In this document: positions 12,771-43,173 of the stretch, piece after piece | How the letters are laid out: each line of letters opens with the position of its first letter | Numbering within the stretch: position 1 is the first letter of the stretch | From: a virus | Taxonomy: Duplodnaviria; Caudoviricetes | DNA length: 52,855 nucleotides | Direction: 5' to 3' (one strand) | IMG/VR virus record: IMGVR_UViG_3300044995_000307 | Location: 1 to 52,855 of that record | Program-made: the position numbers and the translations under genes | Notes under the pieces: model-generated | Seen by the model: the letters and a program-made list of their open reading frames with translations, nothing else | The model's database searches: none | Told to the model about the DNA's origin: nothing

Positions 12771-15700
12771 TTATATTGCAATAAAATTACCAACAACTGG
12801 GTTATTACCTCTAGTGAGGGTAACTCTATTAATAAACTTCTTAGCAACTTCTGTTAATGTTAATTCAACATCAATAACAGCTGCACCATTTTGAGTAACC
12901 CAAAATGGATTGTTACTTCTGTCGAAAATTATTTTAAAATCTTCAATAGCTCCAAAACCATCTCTAATATTTGCATAATATTGTGTTAATGCAGCTTCAA
13001 CAGTAGTTCTTAAGATATCATTGTTAAATTCAAAAGGGAAATTGTCTAAAATTTGTTCAGTATCAATTTCCATAGTAATCAATGTATCTCTAGCATGAAT
13101 GTTGTTTAAAATACTATTGAATTTTTGATAACTAGTTTCATTACCACCAATAATTACTCTTCCATCAGCTTTTTTATAAATTGGATTTATACCTTTTTCT
13201 TCTAAAGCACCTCTTTGTTCTTTAGTTAAAGGATAAGTAACTCCGCTAACAGCATATTTAGCAGTACCAGTAATAACACCAGAATTAGTACCCGCAACTG
13301 CTTTAAAAGGATTGGAACGATACTTTCTAATAAAATTATTAGAAACAAATGGTGCTGCCACTGGCTCTATAATATCTCCGTTATCTAATCTTACTTCTAG
13401 ATTAGGGAAGAAGAAACCAACAAATGATGCACCTTGTTCTTCTTCTGGAAGGGTATATAGGAAAGTAGGATTCTCTGCAATATTACCACCATCATTAATA
13501 TACTCAATATTAAGTACTGGTAATGGATCAGAAGGACTAGGAGTATCAGTAAATCTAGGATCTTGGCTATCTCTAAATTCTTGTACTGTAGGAGTATTTA
13601 AAATACCAAGACATTTTTGTCTCTTTTTAATAAATTTAGATAATATACTTTTAGAATTTGGTTCTAACCCATGATTAAATGTATCAACAAAATATCTAAA
13701 GCTAATCATTTCTGGATCAGCCATAGCTTCAGCTAAGTTAGTTTCTGTTAAAACAGAATAAATTTCTTTCATTCTAGCATTAGTTCCATCTGGCATGTGA
13801 GATGGTTTAACAGTATACCCTTCTAATGTAGTAATATCAAAAGTATTAAACATTTGAGCTAAAGGAATAAACCTTTCAACTTGAGTATTAGAGTTTACAT
13901 CAACAAATAGTTTTATGGTATTATCACATTCTACATCTAAATGAGTTGGAACTGGAGACCCATGTCTTTTAATAGACAAAATTCTTGCCATTATAGGATC
14001 TCCATTTACATCTTCTCCACTAAGATAATGACCAACTTTTATATCATTTACAAAAGATATTGGTATTCTAACAGTTTTTGAATTAACAACTGTTGCTGGT
14101 AACCTTTTATTAATAGAACCTACTAAAGAAATAATATTAAATAAAGTCGGAGTAGTAACTGGATAACCCATAGAATCTAATGTAGATCCAAAAGTAGGTG
14201 CATTACCAGGAGTAATAGGTATAGTTAAATTAGAATCAGTAAAGAATGATATTTTTAATAATTCTCTAAAATCATTTGGTGGGAAAATATTACCTTGTGA
14301 ATTTACTAATTCAAATTTAACATAATAAGTATTTCCAGTTACTTCTACTTTATCGCCATTAGTTAGCTCACCACTCTTCCAGTCTAAATAAACTTGAGAT
14401 TTTTTATCAGCATAATAAAATGTTGATGATCCGTCAATATCAAATCTGTTAATTTCTGAATCATAATGAAAATCACCAGTAGTACCAGTTACTCCACCAG
14501 AAAAAGAACCTGCTGTAGCTGCTACAGTACCAGTTACAGTTACGCTAAGGGTATAACTATTTGCTGTAGCTCCACTGCCAGAAGGTGCTGTAATAGTAAA
14601 GTTAGCTAAGTTACTAGTACCAGTATAACCATGATTACCAGTATTTGCCATAACATCAGCTATTAATCCAGTAGCTACGTCAGTTGGAGTATCTAAGTTT
14701 TGAACAGTGTATGAACCTAAAAGAATAGGAGTTGGCGTATTTGAATATAACTGAATAGTGTTTCCATTAGAACCTGCATTTGTAATAGTACCAGAAGCCG
14801 TTGCTAAAATTTCTGTTACAGGAGGAGACACCCAAAGATCTACAAAAGAACCACTATTGCTATTTTCTAATGATTTGAATTGATTGGTTACAGTAAATGT
14901 AACTGCACTAACTGTTTTTAAAACAGAAGTTACTTGTAAGGCTGGTTCAGTTATTGTAATACCTGCTGCAAGACCAGCAGGAGTAGTAACACCTCTAAAT
15001 AAATCTCCAATCTCTAATTCAGTATGTAATGTATTAAAATTAGGATTAGAGTTAGTTACTTGTACTGTGATACTCTTAACATTAGAAGTTACAGTTACAC
15101 CAGTGGTAGCATGCAGCACAAATGGCGTAAATGAAGATTTTTTAGTATAAGTAAAATCTTGTGTAAGCTTTCTTTTATATGATAAAAAGTTGGCATTGCT
15201 AACATTATTAGTAAGCAATCTGTGTCCAACCATATCAAGATATTTTACATTAGAATTAGTTTCATATGCATCTAATTCTCTCTTATCAATAGCACAAAGA
15301 ACGCCAGTTACTAAAGTTTCTCTATTAATTAAACTTTCTATATCTAATGATTGACCATTCTTGTCTCTAAATTCTGGAATAATACAACCAGTGTATAATC
15401 TAACAAGATTAACATTAGGATTATTAACAAATTCTTCTAACTTAGAAGCTATTAAACCATTATTATCAAAATATTGACCAAAAATAGGATCTGTAGACAA
15501 CTGTGCATATTTTGCTGGACTAAAATCACCATTTATAACATAAACATCAACAAAATAATCCGATATTAAATCTGTAGGTTTAATATATTTTGGTATTAAA
15601 TCCTCATTAACATACCAATCTCTTGCAGTTACAGCAAATTGTCTAGCAAATGATGATTTTTTTATGATAAAGGATAATTTGTTCTTAGAAACATTAGCTA

Positions 15701-16220
15701 AATTTAGTATACTTTTTTGATCTTGAATGTCTCTTGTTGCTAATAAGTAATTTTTATCAGCAAACCAAAATCTCTCTTTATTAAAATAAGATGCTAATAA
15801 TTTTTTCTTTACGTTACCATTTAAAGTGGCTACGTCTGTAGAAAATGATCTATATTCAGCTGTATCAGCATTTATAGTAGGATTACCATTACCGTCTAAT
15901 TCATTATTGACTTTTAATAAATTTAAAGCTATTACTGGACCTTCTTCTAAAGCTACATCTAAAGCTAAATGAAACCAAGAACCTTTTCTTTCAAGAGTGA
16001 TATCTCTTGGTCCGAAAAGTCTTTCTGCAGTTTCTCTATCTCCTTTATTGATGAAAACAGGAGCATTAAATATTCCTGTTTTAGAGTAACCAACAACTAA
16101 TCTGATAGGTTCAGTTGATTGTACATTGGGTGACTTACTAGCATCTCTGTATATTGTATATACACCAGATGCACGAAAAGTAGTAAGTAATGAATTAAGT
16201 GTAATTAAACCTTCTGCCAT
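12771..16220 (-). CDS. Tail sheath protein (T4 gp18-like), enlarged
   Basis: N-terminal SGVYT..D, G.FNAPV..LFG; C-terminal AVAG..SGVI, LEEKGINPI, GNET, LNNIHARD, FEFNN, DRSNN, KFI. Confidence 0.9.
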   Translation of the reverse strand: MAEGLITLNSLLTTFRASGVYTIYRDASKSPNVQSTEPIRLVVGYSKTGIFNAPVFINKGDRETAERLFGPRDITLERKGSWFHLALDVALEEGPVIALNLLKVNNELDGNGNPTINADTAEYRSFSTDVATLNGNVKKKLLASYFNKERFWFADKNYLLATRDIQDQKSILNLANVSKNKLSFIIKKSSFARQFAVTARDWYVNEDLIPKYIKPTDLISDYFVDVYVINGDFSPAKYAQLSTDPIFGQYFDNNGLIASKLEEFVNNPNVNLVRLYTGCIIPEFRDKNGQSLDIESLINRETLVTGVLCAIDKRELDAYETNSNVKYLDMVGHRLLTNNVSNANFLSYKRKLTQDFTYTKKSSFTPFVLHATTGVTVTSNVKSITVQVTNSNPNFNTLHTELEIGDLFRGVTTPAGLAAGITITEPALQVTSVLKTVSAVTFTVTNQFKSLENSNSGSFVDLWVSPPVTEILATASGTITNAGSNGNTIQLYSNTPTPILLGSYTVQNLDTPTDVATGLIADVMANTGNHGYTGTSNLANFTITAPSGSGATANSYTLSVTVTGTVAATAGSFSGGVTGTTGDFHYDSEINRFDIDGSSTFYYADKKSQVYLDWKSGELTNGDKVEVTGNTYYVKFELVNSQGNIFPPNDFRELLKISFFTDSNLTIPITPGNAPTFGSTLDSMGYPVTTPTLFNIISLVGSINKRLPATVVNSKTVRIPISFVNDIKVGHYLSGEDVNGDPIMARILSIKRHGSPVPTHLDVECDNTIKLFVDVNSNTQVERFIPLAQMFNTFDITTLEGYTVKPSHMPDGTNARMKEIYSVLTETNLAEAMADPEMISFRYFVDTFNHGLEPNSKSILSKFIKKRQKCLGILNTPTVQEFRDSQDPRFTDTPSPSDPLPVLNIEYINDGGNIAENPTFLYTLPEEEQGASFVGFFFPNLEVRLDNGDIIEPVAAPFVSNNFIRKYRSNPFKAVAGTNSGVITGTAKYAVSGVTYPLTKEQRGALEEKGINPIYKKADGRVIIGGNETSYQKFNSILNNIHARDTLITMEIDTEQILDNFPFEFNNDILRTTVEAALTQYYANIRDGFGAIEDFKIIFDRSNNPFWVTQNGAAVIDVELTLTEVAKKFINRVTLTRGNNPVVGNFIAI

Positions 16221-20657: not shown

Positions 20658-22346
20658 ATGAGCAACTTAGATTATTTTAAATCATTAATATTAAAAAATA
20701 AATTTTCATATGTTAGTATACTTAAGAAAAATAGTTTATTTGATAGTTTCATGAATAGTTTCCCTTATTTAAAAGATATTTACGGTGACAATATTTCTAA
20801 TAAACAAGTTGCTTGGCATTTAATTAATTCCCCAGAAATACAGATGTGTGATGTCTGTAAAAAAAAGCCAAAATTGTTTATTTACATGAAAGGCAAATAT
20901 GCAGAAACATGTAGTGAGGCTTGTAGGAGAAAGCTTGTTTCATCTAGAATAGATTTTAACGAATTATCAAAAAAAGTAAAACAAACGATAGCTGCTAAGT
21001 ATGGATCAGAAAATTTTTTTAAAACAAAAGAATTTAAAGAAAAAAATAAAGCAACATGTTTAAAAAAATATGGAACTGAATATTATCTTCAAACAGACGA
21101 ATTTAAAGAAAAAAGTAAAGCAACATGTTTGAAAAAATATGGAGTTGACATAGTTTCTAAGTCAGAAAAAATAAAAGAGAAAGTAAAAGAAAATAATCTG
21201 TTAAAATATAAAAAAGAACATTTCTTTCAAACAGAAGAATTTAAAGAAAAAAGTAAAGCAACATGCTTAAAAAAATATGGCACAGAAAAAATATTAGAAA
21301 GTAGCAACCATAAAAATATCCTTTTTAAAAATAATAAACCAGATTATGAGAAAATGCTAAAAGCATTTAATTTTTCTTTAATAAGATATGGCAAAACATG
21401 TGAAATTAGTTGTCAATGTGGAAAGACATTTAACATAAACAGAAATACCTTAAATAATCGAATTTATAAAGGAATTAATATATGTAGAAATTTTTGTGAT
21501 AAAGATATAAAAATATCATCTGGTCATAAAAAATTATTAGAGCAAATCCAAGAATTTTATAAAGGAAATATTTTAATAAATCATAAAATATTTAATCAAG
21601 AGCTAGATATATTTTTACCAGATTTGAACATTGGAATAGAGTACAATGGGTTATATTGGCATGGTGAATTAAAAAAAGAACAAAATTATCATAAAAATAA
21701 GTTTTTGTTTTTTGAAAATATTGGAATTAGACTAATATCTGTTTGGTCTGATGATTTTATCAATAAAAATGATTTAGTAATTAATGTTATTAAAAATGCT
21801 ATTACTGGTGGTGAAAAGATATTTGCTAGAAATTGTCATGTAAAGTTAGTAGAAAAAGAAAAAGAATTTAAATTCTTAGAAGAAAATCATTTACAAGGTT
21901 ATAATGGAAGTACTGTTTGTTATGGCTTATATCATAATGAAGAATTAGTACAATTAATGAGTTTTACATATTGGAAAAGTAAAAAATCATGGGAGATTCA
22001 AAGGTTATGCACAAAAATGGACATTAATGTAATTGGTGGAACAGAAAAATTATGGAAGCATTTTTTATCTAATAATAATCCTAAGCATGTTTTCAGTTAT
22101 TCTTCTTGTGATTATTTTACTGGAAAAGTTTATGAAAAATTAGGAATGAATCTTGAAAAAATTACAGAACCTAGCTACTGGTGGAGTGATGGTTATGAAA
22201 GAATAACTAGGCAATCTGTTCAAAAACATAAGTTAATTAAAATGTTTCCAGAAATGTCTAATATGAGCGAAATAGAAATAATGAAAAGTCTTAAATATTT
22301 TAGAGTGTTTAATTGTGGTAATAAAAAATATTCTATTACATTTTAA
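20658..22346 (+). CDS. Hef-like homing endonuclease-type protein (KYG repeats, Zn ribbon, PD-(D/E)xK-like domain, C-terminal GNAT-like domain)
   Basis: CxxC pairs, EFKEKxKATCLKKYG x3, LDIFLPDLNIGIEYNGLYWH, KIFARNC...NHLQG...WEIQRLC; opposite orientation to neighbours. Confidence 0.75.
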   Translation: MSNLDYFKSLILKNKFSYVSILKKNSLFDSFMNSFPYLKDIYGDNISNKQVAWHLINSPEIQMCDVCKKKPKLFIYMKGKYAETCSEACRRKLVSSRIDFNELSKKVKQTIAAKYGSENFFKTKEFKEKNKATCLKKYGTEYYLQTDEFKEKSKATCLKKYGVDIVSKSEKIKEKVKENNLLKYKKEHFFQTEEFKEKSKATCLKKYGTEKILESSNHKNILFKNNKPDYEKMLKAFNFSLIRYGKTCEISCQCGKTFNINRNTLNNRIYKGINICRNFCDKDIKISSGHKKLLEQIQEFYKGNILINHKIFNQELDIFLPDLNIGIEYNGLYWHGELKKEQNYHKNKFLFFENIGIRLISVWSDDFINKNDLVINVIKNAITGGEKIFARNCHVKLVEKEKEFKFLEENHLQGYNGSTVCYGLYHNEELVQLMSFTYWKSKKSWEIQRLCTKMDINVIGGTEKLWKHFLSNNNPKHVFSYSSCDYFTGKVYEKLGMNLEKITEPSYWWSDGYERITRQSVQKHKLIKMFPEMSNMSEIEIMKSLKYFRVFNCGNKKYSITF

Positions 22347-23432: not shown

Positions 23433-23926
23433 TTTTTGCAGTTATGTATCACTTTTAAAAGATATTCTTTAAAACCACTTTTTTTAGTAATACTTTCATA
23501 AAATACCATTACACTTAAACCTAATGATTTCAAATAATTTATTTTTAATCTATCTTTTTCTCTGATTATGTTTGTATCAATAATCCTATTTTTAATTTTT
23601 ATAAATCTTTCATTAAAAAAAGTAGGATTTACATGAATAACGTCTCCAAAAATTTCTATAATAAGATTTTTATCAGGAAAGAAAAAATCTGCTGAATATT
23701 TGCCAAATCTTTTATTATGTATAAATTTTACATTATTGTTTGATAAAAAGTTAATTAGCTCTAATTCTTGATTACTAATAGAATGTGACTTTTTCTTATT
23801 ACAAAAAATACATGTTTCTTCATTATTTTTAACTCTTTTATTGTATAAACGCTTTGTTATATAATAATGCCTATTACATTTTTCATCGAAGCAATAGTAA
23901 TAGCTACCATATTCTTCTATTACCAT
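23429..23926 (-). CDS. Zn-ribbon plus Vsr/DUF559-like endonuclease
   Basis: C..C pairs, S.QE, YSADFFFPDKNLIIEIFGDVIH, KDRLK..YLKSLG...FYE. Confidence 0.75.
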   Translation of the reverse strand: MVIEEYGSYYYCFDEKCNRHYYITKRLYNKRVKNNEETCIFCNKKKSHSISNQELELINFLSNNNVKFIHNKRFGKYSADFFFPDKNLIIEIFGDVIHVNPTFFNERFIKIKNRIIDTNIIREKDRLKINYLKSLGLSVMVFYESITKKSGFKEYLLKVIHNCKK

Positions 23927-25185
23927 ATTCCACCAAACAATAATATTTCAGCGTTTATTTTAGGTATACCTAATACACTTAGTATATTATTCATTGGATT
24001 TAAAAATACAGCCTCAAATTGTGCTTCATAATTTATTGGCATAGCTATTTCTGCTGGAAAGAATCCTGGAAAGAATCCAAAAACATGTCCATTTTGTGAA
24101 TGATAGTATTGTATTTTGTTACCGCTTTTTATAAATGGGTATTTGCTTTTATAGTTACTATTATATAATAAGTAATTGTAAACAGCAGCTGCTCTAACAT
24201 GCTCTGGACAACCAGATACTAATTTCAATTCTGTAGTATCTGATATAACATACTTGTTATAGTTATTAACTTTCTTAAAAAACGATATGTTTGATATATT
24301 ATTAGTAGTTGTAAATTGATCTTTAATTTCTTTTAGTAATTTAACTAACTTATCAGTATTCATTTCAATACCACTATCCATAATAAATTCTATTGTTCTT
24401 TTCATTTGTTCTCTTACATATTTAGGAGTAGATTTTTTATTTATATCTATGCCTTTGAAAGATAATGATTTTAACCTGTCATTAATTATCTTTCCACTCC
24501 ACATGGAATTTTTTATGTACATTTTTTTTGCTACCCACAAAATAGAATAATTGATTTGTTCTAAAGCTAATTTAAAAGAAGGTTTTCCGTTAGGTCTTTT
24601 AGTAAAAGCACCATACTTTTCACAAAATTTATCTAACATTATAGAATAATAATTGATTAAGCCATAGTGATAAACTTTTAATATGAACTCAAGCTTTACA
24701 TAATCTGGATTATTGTAATTTGGTATTACTTTATAAACCTTTGCTATAGTTTCATCATATGAAGGAGTGTACGTTACATTTTTATAAATTTTATCGAATA
24801 CTACCATTATAGAGTCAGTATCTGCATAATGCACAGTGTCAAAATTATGATAAGCTGGTACTGTACACCCAATCTTAGCTAGTAAAGCTTTGTCTTTAGG
24901 AAATAATTCTTTGAAATAGTAGTTAGTTATGTTTATAGTATATTTTATTAATGATCTTGACTGGGTAGTAACAGACTCTGCTACTCTTCTTTCATATAAT
25001 ATAAATTTTTTAAAACCTAATACGCCATATATTGAATTGAGAATTATTTTCTTTGATTTGTTACCATTATCTCTTATTATTCTTAGTTTCTTTAATCTAT
25101 TAATTTCTGAAAGAATTTCTTCTTTTGAGTATTTTTTACCTTGCTCTAATTTAGAATGATGAAGTTTTTCTTGTACTAAAATCAT
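23920..25185 (-). CDS. Family B DNA polymerase, C-terminal subunit of a split gene (gp43B-like)
   Basis: KIILNSIYG (motif B), YADTDS (motif C), AKKMY, KG.D..KKSTP, P.HVRAA..YN; no exonuclease domain or motif A. Confidence 0.9.
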   Translation of the reverse strand: MILVQEKLHHSKLEQGKKYSKEEILSEINRLKKLRIIRDNGNKSKKIILNSIYGVLGFKKFILYERRVAESVTTQSRSLIKYTINITNYYFKELFPKDKALLAKIGCTVPAYHNFDTVHYADTDSIMVVFDKIYKNVTYTPSYDETIAKVYKVIPNYNNPDYVKLEFILKVYHYGLINYYSIMLDKFCEKYGAFTKRPNGKPSFKLALEQINYSILWVAKKMYIKNSMWSGKIINDRLKSLSFKGIDINKKSTPKYVREQMKRTIEFIMDSGIEMNTDKLVKLLKEIKDQFTTTNNISNISFFKKVNNYNKYVISDTTELKLVSGCPEHVRAAAVYNYLLYNSNYKSKYPFIKSGNKIQYYHSQNGHVFGFFPGFFPAEIAMPINYEAQFEAVFLNPMNNILSVLGIPKINAEILLFGGIW

Positions 25186-25212: not shown

Positions 25213-26847
25213 ATGAATGAAATTACTAGCCTACACAATGAATTAAAAAAATCGACAGAACATATACTTAGACCACAAGTTTTAAGTATGCTTATAAAAA
25301 ATAATGATAAATTGCTTTCCATATTAATGCAATTGACAAAATTTTTAGATAATGAAAAAAACGTTAGTTTCAAAAGAAGATTATGGCACTTTCAAAATAA
25401 TTGTTATGAAAAAGTTTTATGTAAAGAATGTGGTATCAATTATGCTAATTGGTCAGAAAGTAAAGGTTACACATCTTGTTCAAAAAAGTGTACAGAAAAT
25501 AAAAAGAAAAAAATATTCTTAGAAAAATATGGCGTAGATAACCCTAATAAATCACATTTAATTAAAGCTAAAATAGAAGAAACTAATAAAAAGAAATATG
25601 GCAGTAAAACAGTTTTTGGAACTAAACATTTTAAAGATATATTGGGTGTTGATAACCCAATGAAAAGCGACATTATTAAAGAAAAAAGAAAATTAGCTAT
25701 ACTTCAAAAATATGGAGTAGATCATACGTCAAGGACTACTGAAGTAAAAAACAAAATAAAAACATATTTAGAAAATAATAAAAAAGATATTGCTGTAAAA
25801 GTAAAAAAATCTCTAAAGGAAAAATATGGCGTTGATAATCCAATGAAGAGTGATATTATAAAAAATTTAATAAAAGACAAATTTATAAAAAATCATAAGT
25901 TAGATGGATTCACCTTAATTAATATAAATAACGGTAAATTTGAATTTAATTGTCACACATGCAATAATGACTTTGTTATAGATAAAACTACCTATTATAA
26001 TAGAATAAAAAATAACATTAGCATATGTCCAGAGTGTTTTCCTTTAAATAATAAATGGAGTAATTTAGAAAATGAATTACTTAAATTTATTGAAGAAAAT
26101 TATGATGGTGTTATTATTAAAAATGATAGAGAAGTTATAAAACCAGAAGAAATAGACATTTTGTTACCAGAATTAAAAATAGGAATAGAGTTTAATGGCT
26201 TGTACTGGCACAGTAGTATTAACAAAGAAGTTAATTATCATAAAGAAAAAGAATTAGCATGTAGAAAAAAAGGAATCCAATTAATACAAATCTGGGAAGA
26301 TGACTGGATTTATAAAAAAGAAATGATAAAAGGAATACTACTCAACAAATTCAATAAAAGTAAAAAAATATTTGCTAGAAAAACTACATTAAAATTAATT
26401 AACTATAAAGAGTTTAGTAAATTTATAAATGAAAACCATTTGCAAGGAAGTATTCCAGCAAATTTATATTATGGATTGTATAGTGACAATTATTTAGTAT
26501 GTGCTATGAGTTTTAGAAAAGAAAAAGAAATATGGGAAATATCTAGACTAGCTACAAAAATAGGCTATTCAGTAATAGGTGGAGTTAGCAAAATATTAAA
26601 ATCATTTGAAAAATTAGCAAAACCAAAAACTTTAATTTCTTATTGTTGCAAAGATTACTTTAATGGCAACACTTATTTAAACGTTGGTATGAAACTAGTT
26701 AAAGAAACAAAGCCAAGTTTATTTTTTGTTAATAAAAAATTCGATAAGAGAATTAATAGAAGAAGATTACAAAAATCAGACCAATCAGAATATTATAAAG
26801 TTTATAACTCTGGCAATTTGTTGTTCATTAAAGAATACTATTCTTAG
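25213..26847 (+). CDS. Hef-like homing endonuclease-type protein
   Basis: KYGVDNP repeats, CxxC, IDILLPELKIGIEFNGLYWH, WEDDW, KIFARK, NHLQG; paralogue of 20658..22346. Confidence 0.75.
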   Translation: MNEITSLHNELKKSTEHILRPQVLSMLIKNNDKLLSILMQLTKFLDNEKNVSFKRRLWHFQNNCYEKVLCKECGINYANWSESKGYTSCSKKCTENKKKKIFLEKYGVDNPNKSHLIKAKIEETNKKKYGSKTVFGTKHFKDILGVDNPMKSDIIKEKRKLAILQKYGVDHTSRTTEVKNKIKTYLENNKKDIAVKVKKSLKEKYGVDNPMKSDIIKNLIKDKFIKNHKLDGFTLININNGKFEFNCHTCNNDFVIDKTTYYNRIKNNISICPECFPLNNKWSNLENELLKFIEENYDGVIIKNDREVIKPEEIDILLPELKIGIEFNGLYWHSSINKEVNYHKEKELACRKKGIQLIQIWEDDWIYKKEMIKGILLNKFNKSKKIFARKTTLKLINYKEFSKFINENHLQGSIPANLYYGLYSDNYLVCAMSFRKEKEIWEISRLATKIGYSVIGGVSKILKSFEKLAKPKTLISYCCKDYFNGNTYLNVGMKLVKETKPSLFFVNKKFDKRINRRRLQKSDQSEYYKVYNSGNLLFIKEYYS

Positions 26848-32192: not shown

Positions 32193-32702
32193 TTATAGTA
32201 TTTCGTTAATATCAGTGTTACTAGAAATTTTGTCTAAATCATCAAATTTTTCTTTTGGTCTAGGCTGATATATTACATTTCTGCCTTTAGGATATCTTTC
32301 ATTAAGTTTTAATACATTATATTTTATAATATCCATTAAAGTAAAATTAAATAATTTTAATAATACCATATAATACCACAATAAATCTCCCATTTCTGAT
32401 TTTAACTTGCTTTTATCAAGCTTTTTACCATGATAAATTGATTTTCTTATTAAAGAAGTAATTTCTCCAGACTCTTCGTTAATTCCCATTATCACAGAAG
32501 ATAGCTGATCTGAACGATTTTCTATAATAGATTCATTGAATCCTCTTATGCAATACTCTGAATATTTGTTAATATAGTCATTATGACTTCTTGTAATATA
32601 ATTGTTGGTTGGAAAAACTATTTTAAAGAAAAATATTTTAAAAACTTTATACTCTCTTAAAAGAGAATGATCTTTTTTATCTAATAATTCATATAGTCTC
32701 AT
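32193..32702 (-). CDS. MazG-like nucleotide pyrophosphohydrolase (MazZ candidate)
   Basis: GINEESGE...KSEMGDLLWY...NVLKLNERYP acidic ExxE/ExxD pattern. Confidence 0.85.
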   Translation of the reverse strand: MRLYELLDKKDHSLLREYKVFKIFFFKIVFPTNNYITRSHNDYINKYSEYCIRGFNESIIENRSDQLSSVIMGINEESGEITSLIRKSIYHGKKLDKSKLKSEMGDLLWYYMVLLKLFNFTLMDIIKYNVLKLNERYPKGRNVIYQPRPKEKFDDLDKISSNTDINEIL

Positions 32703-33780: not shown

Positions 33781-34120
33781 AATAGTGCTATCAGAAGTTT
33801 TTTTAGATGATGATATATTTCCTGGATACGAACTGATTGATGTTGGTAAAAGCAATTTATTCCAAAAAAACAATGATATAAATATATTTTTTGATGTAAA
33901 AAGATTAATAGAAGAATGTAATAAACTTATATCAAAAAATCAAAAACCACTAGTTATTTTAGTTAACTCAAAAGTAGATAATGAAGCTATATATGATAAA
34001 ATTTTCAATATGAATATACCTTTGTCTTTATCATTAATAATGGAAGAATTTAGAGAAGACAAAAGATTTGAAAAAATCTATACGGTTGATGAAAATTTAT
34101 TAGTAAAAATACATATCTAA
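33764..34120 (+). CDS. Hypothetical protein
   Basis: 118 aa ORF, coupled to neighbours. Confidence 0.65.
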   Translation: MMNKIKIVLSEVFLDDDIFPGYELIDVGKSNLFQKNNDINIFFDVKRLIEECNKLISKNQKPLVILVNSKVDNEAIYDKIFNMNIPLSLSLIMEEFREDKRFEKIYTVDENLLVKIHI

Positions 34121-34818
34121 TGAGAGTGTTTAATTTTTTTTCATTTAGGAATATAAAAAAGAATGAAAAAGGCGATCTTGAATTTACAAAGCCGTTAATA
34201 GAAAATTTCAAAAACGTTACTAAAGAACAATCTTCCTTCATCATTACTAAAGAATTAGAAATGAGACCAGATCTAATATCCAACTTAGTAACAGAAGAAA
34301 ATGAAGATTTTTCTGATATGATATTAAAACAAAATGGATTAGGTTGCTTTACAGAAATAAGAGAAAATATGATTATTGAGATTCCAAATGTAAATTCTGT
34401 ATTAGCACAAATTAAAAAAACCAACCAAAAACAAGAAAATCAATCCAAAAAAGAGCTTAATAAAAAATTACCAATAAAAGATAAACAAAGATTATTAGAA
34501 ATAATAGAAATTAATGAAATAAGAACACCAAACATGGTTGCTGAAGGCTCTTCACCAATAGAGGTTAGCAATGGTGTTATTGAGTTAGGGACTGATGTTG
34601 TTTCTAAAAAATGTAAACAAGATTTAACTAAATCTCAATTAATTTCAGAACAGATAAAGAAAGCTATTAAAGATAAAATAAAAAACCAAAACGATCAAAC
34701 AACTAATTTTGAAGAAATATCAAATGCTTCAAAAAGAGTAGAAGCAACTTTATTTTTTAACAATAAGCAAGCAGAAAAAAATAATATTAGCAACTTTAAA
34801 TTAAACCAATCTTTTTAG
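34120..34818 (+). CDS. Baseplate wedge protein (gp53/LysM-like N-terminus)
   Basis: EMRPDLIS...DMILKQNGL...IRENMIIEIP. Confidence 0.6.
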   Translation: MRVFNFFSFRNIKKNEKGDLEFTKPLIENFKNVTKEQSSFIITKELEMRPDLISNLVTEENEDFSDMILKQNGLGCFTEIRENMIIEIPNVNSVLAQIKKTNQKQENQSKKELNKKLPIKDKQRLLEIIEINEIRTPNMVAEGSSPIEVSNGVIELGTDVVSKKCKQDLTKSQLISEQIKKAIKDKIKNQNDQTTNFEEISNASKRVEATLFFNNKQAEKNNISNFKLNQSF

Positions 34819-36127
34819 CTAAACTCAATCTAATAGATTCTTTTAATTTTAAATCTGATATTATACTATACATTTTTTCTTTATTAAAAGAATCATTATT
34901 TCTAAATATTTCTTTAGTTAATTCATAAGAATTATCTACTCCTTTTATTTTTAAATAAAGTTGAATGAATTCTGAATAAACTTGATAATTGTTATCTAGT
35001 TTTTTTGAATCTTTGTTTACGTAAAGTTCTCTAATACCACTAGAAATATTTTGTATAGCTAAAGATAAATGTGCATAAGGAACTGCTATATTTCTCATGA
35101 TAGTGCTATCACTAAGATCTCTTTGTAATCTAGAAATTTCTAATTCATTTATAAATACATCAAATAAAGCCTTAGAAATTTTTAAATTACCTTCTGCATT
35201 TTCAAATTTTATAGGATTTACTTTATGAGACATAGTACTACTTCCAACTTGCTCTTTATCAACTGCAATTAAAAAATCACCATTATGTATGGAAATCCAA
35301 ATATTTTTACACATGTCTTCAAGTATTATAGCAATTCTTTTGAATTTTTCCATATTATCTCTAATAGAAGAGTAATAATCTATTTGTGAAGTTAACTCAT
35401 AGCTACTATATCTTTCAAAATTGTTTCTGAAATTTGTATTTTCCCTAACGTATCGATTAACAAATGATAAAAAGAAATAATTCCAATCAAATTTAGAATC
35501 TATTAATTTCAAACTAAAGAGATTATTAACAGCACCACCAAATTTTATTTTACCATTTTTTAATTGATCAATTTGATTTTTAATTCTTTCTTTGTAAGTA
35601 GAGAAATATTCATTTACAGTAATTGGTATTGCTATTTTACCATGTGTATATGAAGGTAATTTTGCATTTAAATCAATTGAAGAAAAAGAACTTTCCATAA
35701 CAAAAAGCTCTTTTATTATGTTATTGTTTAATTCTATAGCACAAATATTGTAATAAAGTATGTTTAAATCTTGACTTGTTAAACCAAAATGTAAAAATCT
35801 TGCAAAATTTTGTAAGTTATATTGAGATAATATGTAACTTGCAGTATATTCAATACTTTTTATTTCATGTTTTGTAACAGATTCTTGTTTCTTAAAAAAA
35901 TCTATAATTTTATCTTTTTCTTCTTTATTATTGCGAATATTTTCTTTTATTAAAGAAAATGCTGCTTTTTCGTCTTTAGTTAATTCCTTTTTTAAGTAAT
36001 TTAATAAGAAATGTTCTAAATAACAAATTTCAATATTAATGTATGTTAGTATTTTTTTATCTTCACTGATAATATTATTAATATTTGCTAACTTATCAGA
36101 GTATCTAGAATCTAATGGACTTATCAT
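34796..36127 (-). CDS. purB: Adenylosuccinate lyase (divergent)
   Basis: ISPLDSRY, HFGLTSQD, THG, KFGGA, GSSTMSHKVNPIKFENAEGN, SRLQRDLSDST.MRN. Confidence 0.93.
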   Translation of the reverse strand: MISPLDSRYSDKLANINNIISEDKKILTYINIEICYLEHFLLNYLKKELTKDEKAAFSLIKENIRNNKEEKDKIIDFFKKQESVTKHEIKSIEYTASYILSQYNLQNFARFLHFGLTSQDLNILYYNICAIELNNNIIKELFVMESSFSSIDLNAKLPSYTHGKIAIPITVNEYFSTYKERIKNQIDQLKNGKIKFGGAVNNLFSLKLIDSKFDWNYFFLSFVNRYVRENTNFRNNFERYSSYELTSQIDYYSSIRDNMEKFKRIAIILEDMCKNIWISIHNGDFLIAVDKEQVGSSTMSHKVNPIKFENAEGNLKISKALFDVFINELEISRLQRDLSDSTIMRNIAVPYAHLSLAIQNISSGIRELYVNKDSKKLDNNYQVYSEFIQLYLKIKGVDNSYELTKEIFRNNDSFNKEKMYSIISDLKLKESIRLSLAKKIGLI

Positions 36128-41094: not shown

Positions 41095-41127
41095 AATGAC
41101 CAACGAAACTAATTCGTTGGTCATTTT
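41095..41127 (+). terminator. Intrinsic terminator after HU
   Basis: aatgaccaacgaa-actaa-ttcgttggtcatt-tt. Confidence 0.8.
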
Positions 41128-41157: not shown

Positions 41158-41655
41158 ATGAAATATTCTAAATTCAAATCAATCTATTTACAGCTAGAAT
41201 CAATTTCTTCTTATCAAGAATTACCAATAGGTGCTGTTCTTGCAAAAAATCTTTCAAAAATGAAAAAAATTATTACAGAAAAAGAAGAAGAAATTGAAAA
41301 AATAGTACAAAAATATGCAATATTAGATGAAAAAGGTGAATTGCTAGGCATAAAGCAAGAAGATGGCACTAGAAAAGATTTGAAAAAATCTCCATACACT
41401 TATGATGAAATAGACGTAGAAGATAGAGAAAAATTCCAAGAAGAAATTAAAAAAGTAATGGATTCAGAAGTTGAATTTGAACCAATATCAATTTCCTCAT
41501 CTAAAAAAATTTTCGTAAAATACACTAAAGAAGATGATAAAAAAGGCGTAATAACTTTAGAAAGACAATCTACATTAATTGATGAACTAGAGCAAAAACT
41601 AGTACCAGTTGCAATATCGTTTCTAATAGACAATAATATTTTATTAGAAGATTAG
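41158..41655 (+). CDS. Hypothetical protein
   Basis: 165 aa ORF, helical and charged. Confidence 0.7.
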   Translation: MKYSKFKSIYLQLESISSYQELPIGAVLAKNLSKMKKIITEKEEEIEKIVQKYAILDEKGELLGIKQEDGTRKDLKKSPYTYDEIDVEDREKFQEEIKKVMDSEVEFEPISISSSKKIFVKYTKEDDKKGVITLERQSTLIDELEQKLVPVAISFLIDNNILLED

Positions 41656-41724: not shown

Positions 41725-43173
41725 TTAATTATCAAATATAACTTTTGAATCTACAAATTCAGAAGTACCTAATCCGAAAAGATAAACGTTATTATATTTT
41801 TCCATTACTGGCTTAACAAATTGATCTAACCATCGATAACATTTTTGTGATACAAAATCAGTAACCCCTTCCATGTCTGGATCAATCCAATTCATAAAAT
41901 TCATATGAATGTATATTTTATGAATAGTTTGGTTATACTTTATTGCTTCATCAAGATTTATACTAGAGTATGTTGCAACCCTTCTAGGTAATTTAGTAAG
42001 ACTAGTTAATATTGCAGATTCTTTAATAATTATTCCATTTTCTTCTTGTAAGGCTTCCCAAGTAATTTCTTTAGAATCTGGGAAAAAATCTCCGCTGTAT
42101 GAGTCAACTTTATTATAAGGTATTGATGGATATCTGTCTATTAATGGTTTAGTAAGATGTATGTTAGGCCTGCTAGTTACATAGATAAACTTATCTCTAA
42201 TTATTATTTCAAAATAATCGGGCGGATATTCATTAGCAATAGGTTTTATTAATTGTGCTATTTTTTCACTAATAGAGTCAGAATCTTCTGGTAGATTTTC
42301 TCCAAAATGATTCTTATATAACTCTTCAATAGAATAAGAATTTATTGACTCTGATTTGCTAATTAATTTATAAGAAGCTATTCTAATAGGATAAGTTCTA
42401 TCATTAAGGAATACGTTACCAACAACAGATGGTGGTAAAAATCCATCATTTAAAGCAGAACTAACTGTAACATTTCTGCTAGTGGTATAAGGAGCAAATC
42501 TCCAATAATTATTACTTAATGGAAATCCTTGCCCAATAGAGTATAAACCACTTTTACCTTTACTTAATAAGTCTAAAATTTCCTCTTCTACTACACATAC
42601 CATATCCGATATTTCTTTAATATCTTTAGCAGTAACTAAAGTTTTATTTCTAACAGCTTTTTTAGCAAGAACAGCACCACTACCAGAAGCAGTAGTACCA
42701 GTTTTTATAGTTCCATCTCTAAGATCTTCTTCGCTATAATAATTACCATCTAGATCACATAAACCTTTTTCAAAATCTATATCAATTTTTTGAATAACAG
42801 CTGCTCTACTAGAAATTCTTACTTTTGATCTTGGAATACCACAAAATTCTATTTCTTTAAATAAAGATTCTAGTTCAAAACTTGCTCCAGAAGTAATGAA
42901 TATTTTTTCAAGTTTGTCATGGTACAATGAACCGCTAGGTAAAGCTTTAAAAACTATTTCTACTTTTTCTCCATTAGAATTTGTGTCTGTTACCGTATGA
43001 GAAGCATTTGCAGAATTACTAGTCAAAATAAATGAATAATCAGTATTTTTAACTAAAAAAGCTTCTAAAGAGCCTTTACCAGAGCTACCTTGTGCAGCAT
43101 CTAAAAGAAAATTTATTTTACCAGGAATTATGGTATTATTAAGTTTGTTTGAGTAATTAAATTTGTTTTTCAT
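41725..43173 (-). CDS. purZ: PurZ-type adenylosuccinate synthetase homologue (candidate N6-succino-2-amino-dAMP synthetase)
   Basis: LLDAAQGSSGKG (Ser at the PurA Asp13 position), NASHT, LPSG, GTTASGSG, QGFPLS, PYTTSR, RTYPIRIA, SG..PDS.E, TSLTKLPRRV, NFMNW. PurA fold is near certain; the PurZ assignment is probable. Confidence 0.78.
   Translation of the reverse strand: MKNKFNYSNKLNNTIIPGKINFLLDAAQGSSGKGSLEAFLVKNTDYSFILTSNSANASHTVTDTNSNGEKVEIVFKALPSGSLYHDKLEKIFITSGASFELESLFKEIEFCGIPRSKVRISSRAAVIQKIDIDFEKGLCDLDGNYYSEEDLRDGTIKTGTTASGSGAVLAKKAVRNKTLVTAKDIKEISDMVCVVEEEILDLLSKGKSGLYSIGQGFPLSNNYWRFAPYTTSRNVTVSSALNDGFLPPSVVGNVFLNDRTYPIRIASYKLISKSESINSYSIEELYKNHFGENLPEDSDSISEKIAQLIKPIANEYPPDYFEIIIRDKFIYVTSRPNIHLTKPLIDRYPSIPYNKVDSYSGDFFPDSKEITWEALQEENGIIIKESAILTSLTKLPRRVATYSSINLDEAIKYNQTIHKIYIHMNFMNWIDPDMEGVTDFVSQKCYRWLDQFVKPVMEKYNNVYLFGLGTSEFVDSKVIFDN

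Follow-up and report, generated by a model that had tools for sequence, protein, structure and literature searches.

A phage-encoded long-type PurB near a PurZ-type synthetase, probably serving the second step of 2-aminoadenine nucleotide synthesis

In the published PurZ pathway of phages phiVC8, S-2L and SH-Ab 15497, dSMP (succino-2-amino-deoxyadenylate) is split into fumarate and dZMP (the 2-aminoadenine, or Z, deoxynucleoside monophosphate) by a bacterial lyase. Several sources describe host or bacterial PurB, the adenylosuccinate lyase (ASL), as converting dSMP (10.1101/2025.10.22.683976, PMC12783734, PMC12884076), and a further source has host enzymes completing the pathway (PMC8342488). 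Here we analysed a viral fragment from IMG/VR, IMGVR_UViG_3300044995_000307—hereafter the window, meaning all 52,855 nucleotides (52.9 kb) of the record, estimated at 34% complete and ~24% G+C (~76% A+T)—in which the lyase proposed for this same reaction is instead encoded by the phage, as a PurB-like gene at 34796..36127 on the minus strand. The same strand carries a PurZ-type synthetase gene at a distance of 5.6 kb, and an open reading frame (ORF) with a MazG domain lies 2.1 kb away on the opposite side. We consider, with a probability of roughly 0.6, that the window PurB is a catalytically competent ASL-family enzyme belonging to a phage nucleotide module together with the PurZ-type synthetase and the MazG-like pyrophosphohydrolase. 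As judged from its gene content, the phage probably performs the second step of Z nucleotide synthesis, dSMP to dZMP, by itself.

A phage PurB accompanying PurZ is already annotated in sequenced genomes, including one cultured relative with the same long forms of both proteins. That relative is Flavobacterium phage MaF61 (167.8 kb; PQ858689), whose ORF149 (“putative adenosuccinate lyase”) and ORF141 (“putative adenosuccinate synthetase”) are the same gene pair as in the window. Its synthetase is 42% identical to the PurZ-type protein of the window, is also of the long form, and has an FGSSGKG P-loop; its lyase resembles the window PurB in having a basic residue (R) at Q173 (E. coli numbering, used below for all conserved-site changes), in the derived motifs DIVS and QLY, and in its place in the tree, where a branch with 95% support in the Shimodaira–Hasegawa-like approximate likelihood ratio test (SH-aLRT) puts the two together on one side. 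The two lyases are, however, 29% identical, and that of MaF61 carries K94I, E97V, K206R, E311M, R332T and S340I while keeping D92, G212 and P299. A term search of the MaF61 paper (PMC13269007) found no mention of adenosuccinate, adenylosuccinate, diaminopurine or aminoadenine.

Streptomyces phage Hiyaa similarly combines a phage lyase with PurZ, its “PurB-like adenylosuccinate lyase” (gene 76) having an annotated PurZ (gene 67) 4.4 kb upstream, and in Gordonia phage Ghobes an “adenylosuccinate lyase” (gp36) stands beside Pol I; both of these cultured actinophages carry PurZ or PurZ0 along with the lyase. Their lyases are of the short B. subtilis/T. maritima type and come from high-GC siphoviruses, whereas the window PurB is of the long type, and a search with the latter at E 1e-5 did not detect them. 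We found no paper describing a phage-encoded lyase paired with PurZ in the literature searched on PurZ with PurB or adenylosuccinate lyase, a search outside which the 2021 Science papers fall. What the present analysis adds is a contrast between PurZ-linked and PurA-linked viral PurBs, together with a short list of recurrently changed sites.

The first-pass annotation, made from the letters of the sequence, had called a PurB at 34796–36127, and its coordinates were exact: the gene is a minus-strand ORF of 443 amino acids, stop codon included, and is a real, full-length homologue of the E. coli-type, or long-type, adenylosuccinate lyase. Both Lyase_1 (PF00206, 64.1 bits) and ASL_C (PF08328, 89.9 bits) match above their Pfam cut-offs, the NCBIfam model for E. 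coli-type PurB (PRK09285) aligns along the whole protein, and adenylosuccinate lyases of the PDB are hit at E values from 2e-54 to 1e-37. An AlphaFold2 model built from 74 sequences reached a predicted local distance difference test score (pLDDT) of 92.7 and a predicted template modelling score of 0.91, with lower confidence for an insert (residues 231–240), for residues 331–340 and for the mobile signature loop, and Foldseek placed it close to the long-type lyases 4EFC, 4MX2, 3BHG and 2PTQ (Trypanosoma, Leishmania, Legionella and E. coli), with query template modelling scores of 0.81–0.86. Compared with E. coli-type PurB as a group (PRK09285; PDB 2PTQ/2PTR, 3BHG, 4EFC and 4MX2), the window protein has the same domain architecture, fold and length class at 33–40% identity, and shares the catalytic His, Ser and Lys as well as the residues that bind phosphate, fumarate and N6. 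It differs in scoring below the equivalog level, in six departures at near-invariant positions, in an insert at ~225–245 that is modelled with low confidence, in the lack of an N-terminal leader, and in its setting, a phage genome near PurZ as opposed to the purine regulon. The window PurB is probably active as an adenylosuccinate-lyase homologue.

Close relatives of this protein are scarce. Its nearest cellular homologues are PurBs of Bacteroidota, and in a search of 5.8 billion clustered proteins and 1.84 billion representatives one twin with 98% identity was recovered, differing at 7 of 443 residues, none of them at the six departure sites; all other relatives were at most 40% identical. 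A scan of viral contigs with the single protein returned one distant relative only, and a metagenome scan returned 13 loci, none close and the twin not among them.

The partner synthetase, encoded at 41725..43173 on the minus strand (482 amino acids), was assigned to the PurZ type (succino-2-amino-deoxyadenylate synthetase-like) from profile, structure and motif matches. It matches phrog_1211, named “2-aminooxy adenylosuccinate synthetase” in PHROGs, at 93.6 bits, a name also given to PurZ in the annotations of phiVC8 and Hiyaa, and it matches the N-terminal third of the Pfam family Adenylsucc_synt (PF00709, 44.5 bits). In the PDB it matches 6fm1/6fko/6tnh and 7odx best, with 5k7x/2d7u behind them; of these, 7odx alone is titled PurZ, the others having been deposited as adenylosuccinate synthetase. 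We take 6fm1/6fko/6tnh to be the phiVC8 PurZ, 7odx that of S-2L, and 5k7x/2d7u to be archaeal PurA. In an alignment with the PurZ proteins of phiVC8 and S-2L, viral homologues and E. coli PurA, the P-loop of the window protein reads GSSGKG, with Ser at the position of the PurA Asp; PIR[VI], SG..(Y/F)PD..E.TW and TKLPRR are common to it and the phiVC8 and S-2L enzymes, and the TTGR.R aspartate-site motif of PurA is absent. It is a long form, with ~90 extra residues past the PIRI motif. More generally, the long PurZ variant (41725–43173 in the window, and loci L004–L011 and L016–L020) spans 414–482 amino acids, has a GLCDL(D/N)G.Y insert and a variable insert of 40–90 residues after PIRI, reads NASHT where phiVC8 and S-2L PurZ read NAGHT, and in some members has GSSGKS in place of GSSGKG. 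The third member of the putative module (32193..32702, minus strand, 169 amino acids) is a MazG-domain nucleotide pyrophosphohydrolase-like protein (PF03819, 38.5 bits) and a candidate equivalent of MazZ.

In the route that we propose, the MazG-like enzyme would convert dGTP to dGMP, and the phage PurB would remove fumarate by the usual His/Ser acid–base beta-elimination to give dZMP, which kinases would then raise to dZTP for use by the phage family-B DNA polymerase. With its own lyase, the phage would no longer depend on host PurB for the second step, and the supply of Z would have to be very large because the phage DNA is ~76% A+T. The data show directly the family of the window PurB, its retention of the catalytic residues and, D92 apart, of the named binding residues scored among the conserved columns, its repeated pairing with PurZ-type genes, and purifying selection in a sister clade; what the enzyme acts on, whether its specificity has shifted and whether the phage DNA contains Z are inferred.

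The pairing of PurB with PurZ, proposed as a check when the gene was first annotated, holds well beyond the window. With the records added by scans of IMG/VR, and the window and MaF61 included, a long Ser-type PurZ occurs in 14 viral records, 11 of which contain a PurB as well, adjacent to PurZ in five; besides the window and MaF61, the 11 are G001 (a complete genome of 129 kb), G009 (a partial gene at a contig end), G002, G003 and five records of 150 kb (L016–L020). Neither of two records with the classic short PurZ holds a PurB. In L016–L020 the genes are ordered PurZ, two small ORFs, PurB, a homologue of the window ORF that follows PurB, and MazG, all within ~6 kb, the MazG homologue lying 1.9 kb downstream of PurB. 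The window ORF in question (34120..34818, plus strand, 232 amino acids) is convergent with PurB, overlaps its 3′ end by 23 bases, and is 32–33% identical by tblastn to the ORF directly after PurB in these records (L016:11292–11975); for the latter homologue no Pfam family exceeded its cut-off, a weak sub-threshold match to Glyco_transf_41 being the sole one. MazG is also present in MaF61 and in two further records, G014 and G015. Among 50,697 phage records, 63 match the PurZ-like protein of the window and four match its PurB, with MaF61 alone appearing in both lists.

G002 and G003 combine the long PurZ type with a short-type PurB of the other PurB subfamily; therefore, the lyase was recruited at least twice. 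This short-type PurB (L022:1282–2556 and its counterpart in L023) is an orphan with at most 35% identity to anything else, and reads THGEVAG beside the catalytic His where canonical relatives read THG(V/I)HAEP. One such PurZ-linked protein (P0275) differs at 27 of the 90 columns that 76 canonical hits conserve, a count of little weight given its narrow reference set.

We then compared the window PurB with 149 representatives of clusters at 50% identity and with its 119 closest word-based hits, treating as conserved the 55 columns with at least 90% conservation among the representatives. It keeps 49 of the 55 and departs at D92E, Q173K, G212N, Y278S, P299S and G347A. The catalytic residues, which the first-pass annotation had taken to be retained, are all in place, H162, S296 and K302 being E. 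coli H171, S295 and K301, and N304 and P305 of the phage protein are kept too; in E. coli numbering, the conserved columns that are unchanged include R15, Y16, H91, T122, S123, Q247, N303, R335, S340 and R344. Three of the six substituted residues occur in none of the representatives (Q173K, Y278S and G347A), and the remainder in two (D92E) or three (G212N and P299S) of the 149; none of the six is found among the 119 closest hits.

The same annotation had listed five motifs said to differ from the bacterial consensus—DSRY, TKHEIK, SYTHGK, GGAVNN and SSTMSHK—and all five are present as printed. Four of the listed changes (D92E, Q173K, G212N and P299S) do fall at truly conserved positions and are seen in none of the 119 closest bacterial-type PurBs; the rest represent ordinary variation, found in 13–45 of the 149 representatives (the S of DSRY in 20, the K and I of TKHEIK in 38 and 45, and the Y of SYTHGK in 13), and Y278S and G347A had been missed. 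As for the idea that the substitutions cluster at motifs, six departures are indeed unusual, since the median representative has one and just 4 of 149 have six or more, but the clustering itself adds little, conserved columns lying in motifs by definition.

Part of this variation reaches the active site. As named substrate-binding residues we used the Arg/Tyr of D1, the Asn-His-Asp ribose loop, Gln247, Arg335, Ser340 and Arg344, with roles taken from the S. aureus and Leishmania papers. Only the ribose loop is altered, reading K-H-E for N-H-D; the Lys, at N90 (under the 90% threshold), is found in 38 of the 149 representatives and the Glu in two. According to these papers, the counterpart of D92 in S. 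aureus PurB is Asp69, a residue in contact with ribose O3′/O4′, and G212 falls within the GAVG loop, by which the Gln that binds N6 is positioned (PMC2917274); in Leishmania ASL, N90 and D92 are matched by Asn117 and Asp119, both of which contact the ribose (PMC13539675). By this mapping, two of the rare changes in the window, D92E and G212N, touch known active-site elements. Read from the sequence, Q173 lies two residues past the catalytic His, and P299 is the Pro of the signature loop GSSxMPxKxNP, where the phage has Ser.

To place these departures in context, we scored the viral PurBs on the same 55 columns and classed as PurZ-linked those with a Ser-type synthetase in the locus or record, the control loci being the best 80 of 160 viral PurB loci and then the best 80 of 243. 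The eight full-length ORFs linked to a Ser-type, PurZ-like synthetase (the window, five near-identical genes of the L016 clade, MaF61 and G001) show 6–9 departures; a partial gene from L006, with 30 of 55 columns missing, and two short-type genes are omitted from this count. PurBs linked to an Asp-type, PurA-like synthetase (n = 18), whose neighbouring P-loops read GDEAKGK or GDTGKGK, show 0–3 departures with a median of 0 (0 in 13 of 18), and those with no synthetase within 10 kb (n = 61) also show 0–3 with a median of 0. A second scan added 12 new loci, 11 of which have 0–4 departures. The remaining one, L105, an IMG/VR fragment of 19.5 kb, has ten and is the most departure-rich long-type PurB that we saw; no PurZ was found on the fragment. 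L105 comes from the same sample series as L009, a fragment with PurZ and no PurB, so both may derive from a single phage genome.

AT bias was rejected as an explanation: the Asp-linked PurB genes, whose median GC is 0.25 against 0.22 for the window PurB, show a median of 0 departures, and seven occur in the L016 clade at a GC of 0.41.

A phylogeny under the posterior mean site frequency model separates the same groups, with the five sampled Ser-linked PurBs and six context-less, departure-rich sequences on one side of the branch with 95% SH-aLRT support mentioned above, and all Asp-linked, unlinked and cellular PurBs on the other; the branches are long, and the split is hence provisional. The PurZ-linked lyases have derived states in common, DINN becoming DIVS and NW.VLAE.IQT..RR becoming NYQ.FSE.IQLYLK, along with QL(Y/F)L. 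Because these shared states fit a single old origin, the association of long-type PurB with PurZ may reflect one evolutionary event rather than four.

Several observations weigh against the reading of the window PurB as the lyase of a Z module. The control groups are a sample. The score of the window PurB against PRK09285 is 281.1 bits against a cut-off of 446 (and 160.5 against 326.2 for TIGR00928). Host PurB is described in the papers cited at the outset as acting on dSMP, so that a phage copy is not strictly required, and three of the 14 long-PurZ records have no detectable PurB, one of them 21% complete, another 64% complete and the third a complete genome of 320 kb. In the 34%-complete window, searches with HD_3 and YfbR-like models found no DatZ-type HD gene, and the HD-like ORFs of MaF61 and G001 (above the Pfam cut-off for HD_3) and of G014 and G015 (below it) have no homologue there; a PF04447 search for DatZ also gave no match in the window but is uninformative, as control genomes gave none either. 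None of the departures is found in every PurZ-linked lineage: Q173 has become K in the window and R in MaF61 but is kept in the L016 clade, G001 and L006; D92, G212 and P299 are kept in the other PurZ-linked lineages; Y278 is S or M in two lineages and G347 is A or P in three; and changes at K94, E97, R190, K206 and S340/T341 recur in other PurZ-linked lineages and not in the window. We therefore rejected Q173K as a universal Z signature. Finally, Ser-linked PurBs diverge most overall: across the 374 other columns their identity to the majority is 0.22–0.32, compared with 0.41–0.50 for Asp-linked and 0.33–0.55 for unlinked PurBs, and faster evolution in general is thus a confound. The 20 most divergent representatives have anywhere from 0 to 9 departures, and at equal divergence some have 0–3 and others 4–9; several of the high-departure representatives look like members of the same phage clades.

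The alternative that best survives these data is that the window PurB is a Z-pathway lyase whose odd residues have no special meaning, having arisen by fast evolution under relaxed constraint (for instance once the duty toward both SAICAR, succinylaminoimidazole carboxamide ribotide, and SAMP, adenylosuccinate, had gone) and not by positive re-tuning for dSMP. We regard this as rather unlikely, although it would account for substitutions that differ by lineage—among the window departures only Q173 (K/R), Y278 (S/M) and G347 (A/P) recur, and never in all lineages—and for divergence that extends to non-conserved columns, and it accords with the handling of dSMP by unmodified host PurB described in the three sources cited at the outset (10.1101/2025.10.22.683976, PMC12783734, PMC12884076). 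Against it, purifying selection acts on the PurBs of the L016 clade, a sister clade, in which dN/dS (the ratio of nonsynonymous to synonymous substitution rates) is 0.045–0.15 across the ten pairs of its five genes. Seven of the 20 most divergent representatives, at an identity of 0.29–0.32 and chosen for having at most three departures, score 0–3 where PurZ-linked PurBs score 6–9, and the same few positions (K94, E97, R190, K206, Y278, S340/T341 and G347) have changed repeatedly across lineages.

Distinctly less probable is an ordinary purine auxiliary gene, in which synthetase and lyase would turn inosine monophosphate (IMP) into adenosine monophosphate (AMP) for an AT-rich genome that contains no 2-aminoadenine. 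Adjacent PurA–PurB pairs are common in large viral contigs, an Asp-type synthetase occurs at 18 loci, and a window of ~24% GC implies a high demand for adenine nucleotides; yet the window synthetase has Ser and not Asp in its P-loop, four PurZ-only motifs and no TTGR.R, its closest solved relatives are 7odx and the structures that we take to be phiVC8 PurZ, and PurBs beside genuine Asp-type synthetases are canonical, unlike that of the window. That the gene is a decaying or non-catalytic PurB remnant is highly improbable, for although it scores under the NCBIfam equivalog cut-off and is altered next to the catalytic His and within the signature loop, the ORF is full-length, the catalytic His/Ser/Lys and scored binding residues are kept save D92E and the neighbouring N90K, the structural model is confident (pLDDT 92.7), the 98% twin is unchanged at all six special sites, and sister clades are under purifying selection.

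The reading of the window PurB as a competent lyase in a PurZ–MazG module stands apart from the narrower claim, made in the first-pass annotation, of a lyase re-tuned for dSMP. The link to PurZ drawn there is right, and the excess of departures over PurA-linked PurBs lends the claim indirect support, but a motif signature of re-tuning is not supported in the form proposed. Since the PurZ-linked lineages have no substitution in common and their PurBs also diverge most overall, re-tuning is plausible rather than established, and we keep it as a reasonable hypothesis. Substrate preference is not readable from sequence.

Going further, PurZ-linked long-type PurBs might constitute one old phage clade of dedicated dSMP lyases that gave up the dual SAMP/SAICAR role, with Q173K/R and D92E setting a preference for the 2-amino, 2′-deoxy substrate and large Bacteroidota myophages making Z-DNA without host purine enzymes; we advance this tentatively, as possible rather than likely. 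That several unrelated phage groups keep a lyase of their own together with PurZ suggests viral control of the second step too, at least in large AT-rich phages. Candidate specificity positions from the contrast between PurZ- and PurA-linked PurBs are Q173, D92, K94, E97, Y278 and G347, and a lyase that did prefer dSMP would be a useful part for producing Z-DNA in engineered cells.

The survey of PurB loci also recovered a recurrent arrangement in which an Asp-type PurA-like gene (~336–347 amino acids, WGDEAKGK) adjoins a canonical PurB (L030, L034–L036, L039, L040, L050, L051, L053, L055, L056, L058, L087 and L089). Such pairs occur on many contigs of giant-virus metagenome-assembled genomes and on other large viral contigs, and look like a viral IMP-to-AMP module.

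Elsewhere, the window encodes helicases, DnaB-like, UvsX-like and SbcC/SbcD-like proteins and a lysozyme. No Shine–Dalgarno-like sequence is evident in the A/T-rich stretch upstream of the PurB start codon; lack of this element is usual in Bacteroidota. A promoter scan of the window gave 94 sites against 97 expected from shuffled sequence, and hence no excess. A perfect hairpin with a 13-bp stem at 41095–41125, scoring as a terminator on both strands, lies between an ORF on the convergent side, at 41158–41655 (plus strand), and the region 3′ of the PurZ-type gene. In the 1149-residue ORF at 12771–16220, a tail-sheath match is confined to the last ~380 residues, the long N-terminal part having no PHROG match. 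The ORF at 23920–25185 (minus strand) matches the C-terminal part alone of a family-B DNA polymerase and is flanked on the opposite strand by two large homing/HNH-endonuclease ORFs at 20658–22346 and 25213–26847; the polymerase gene of the window appears to be split or interrupted.

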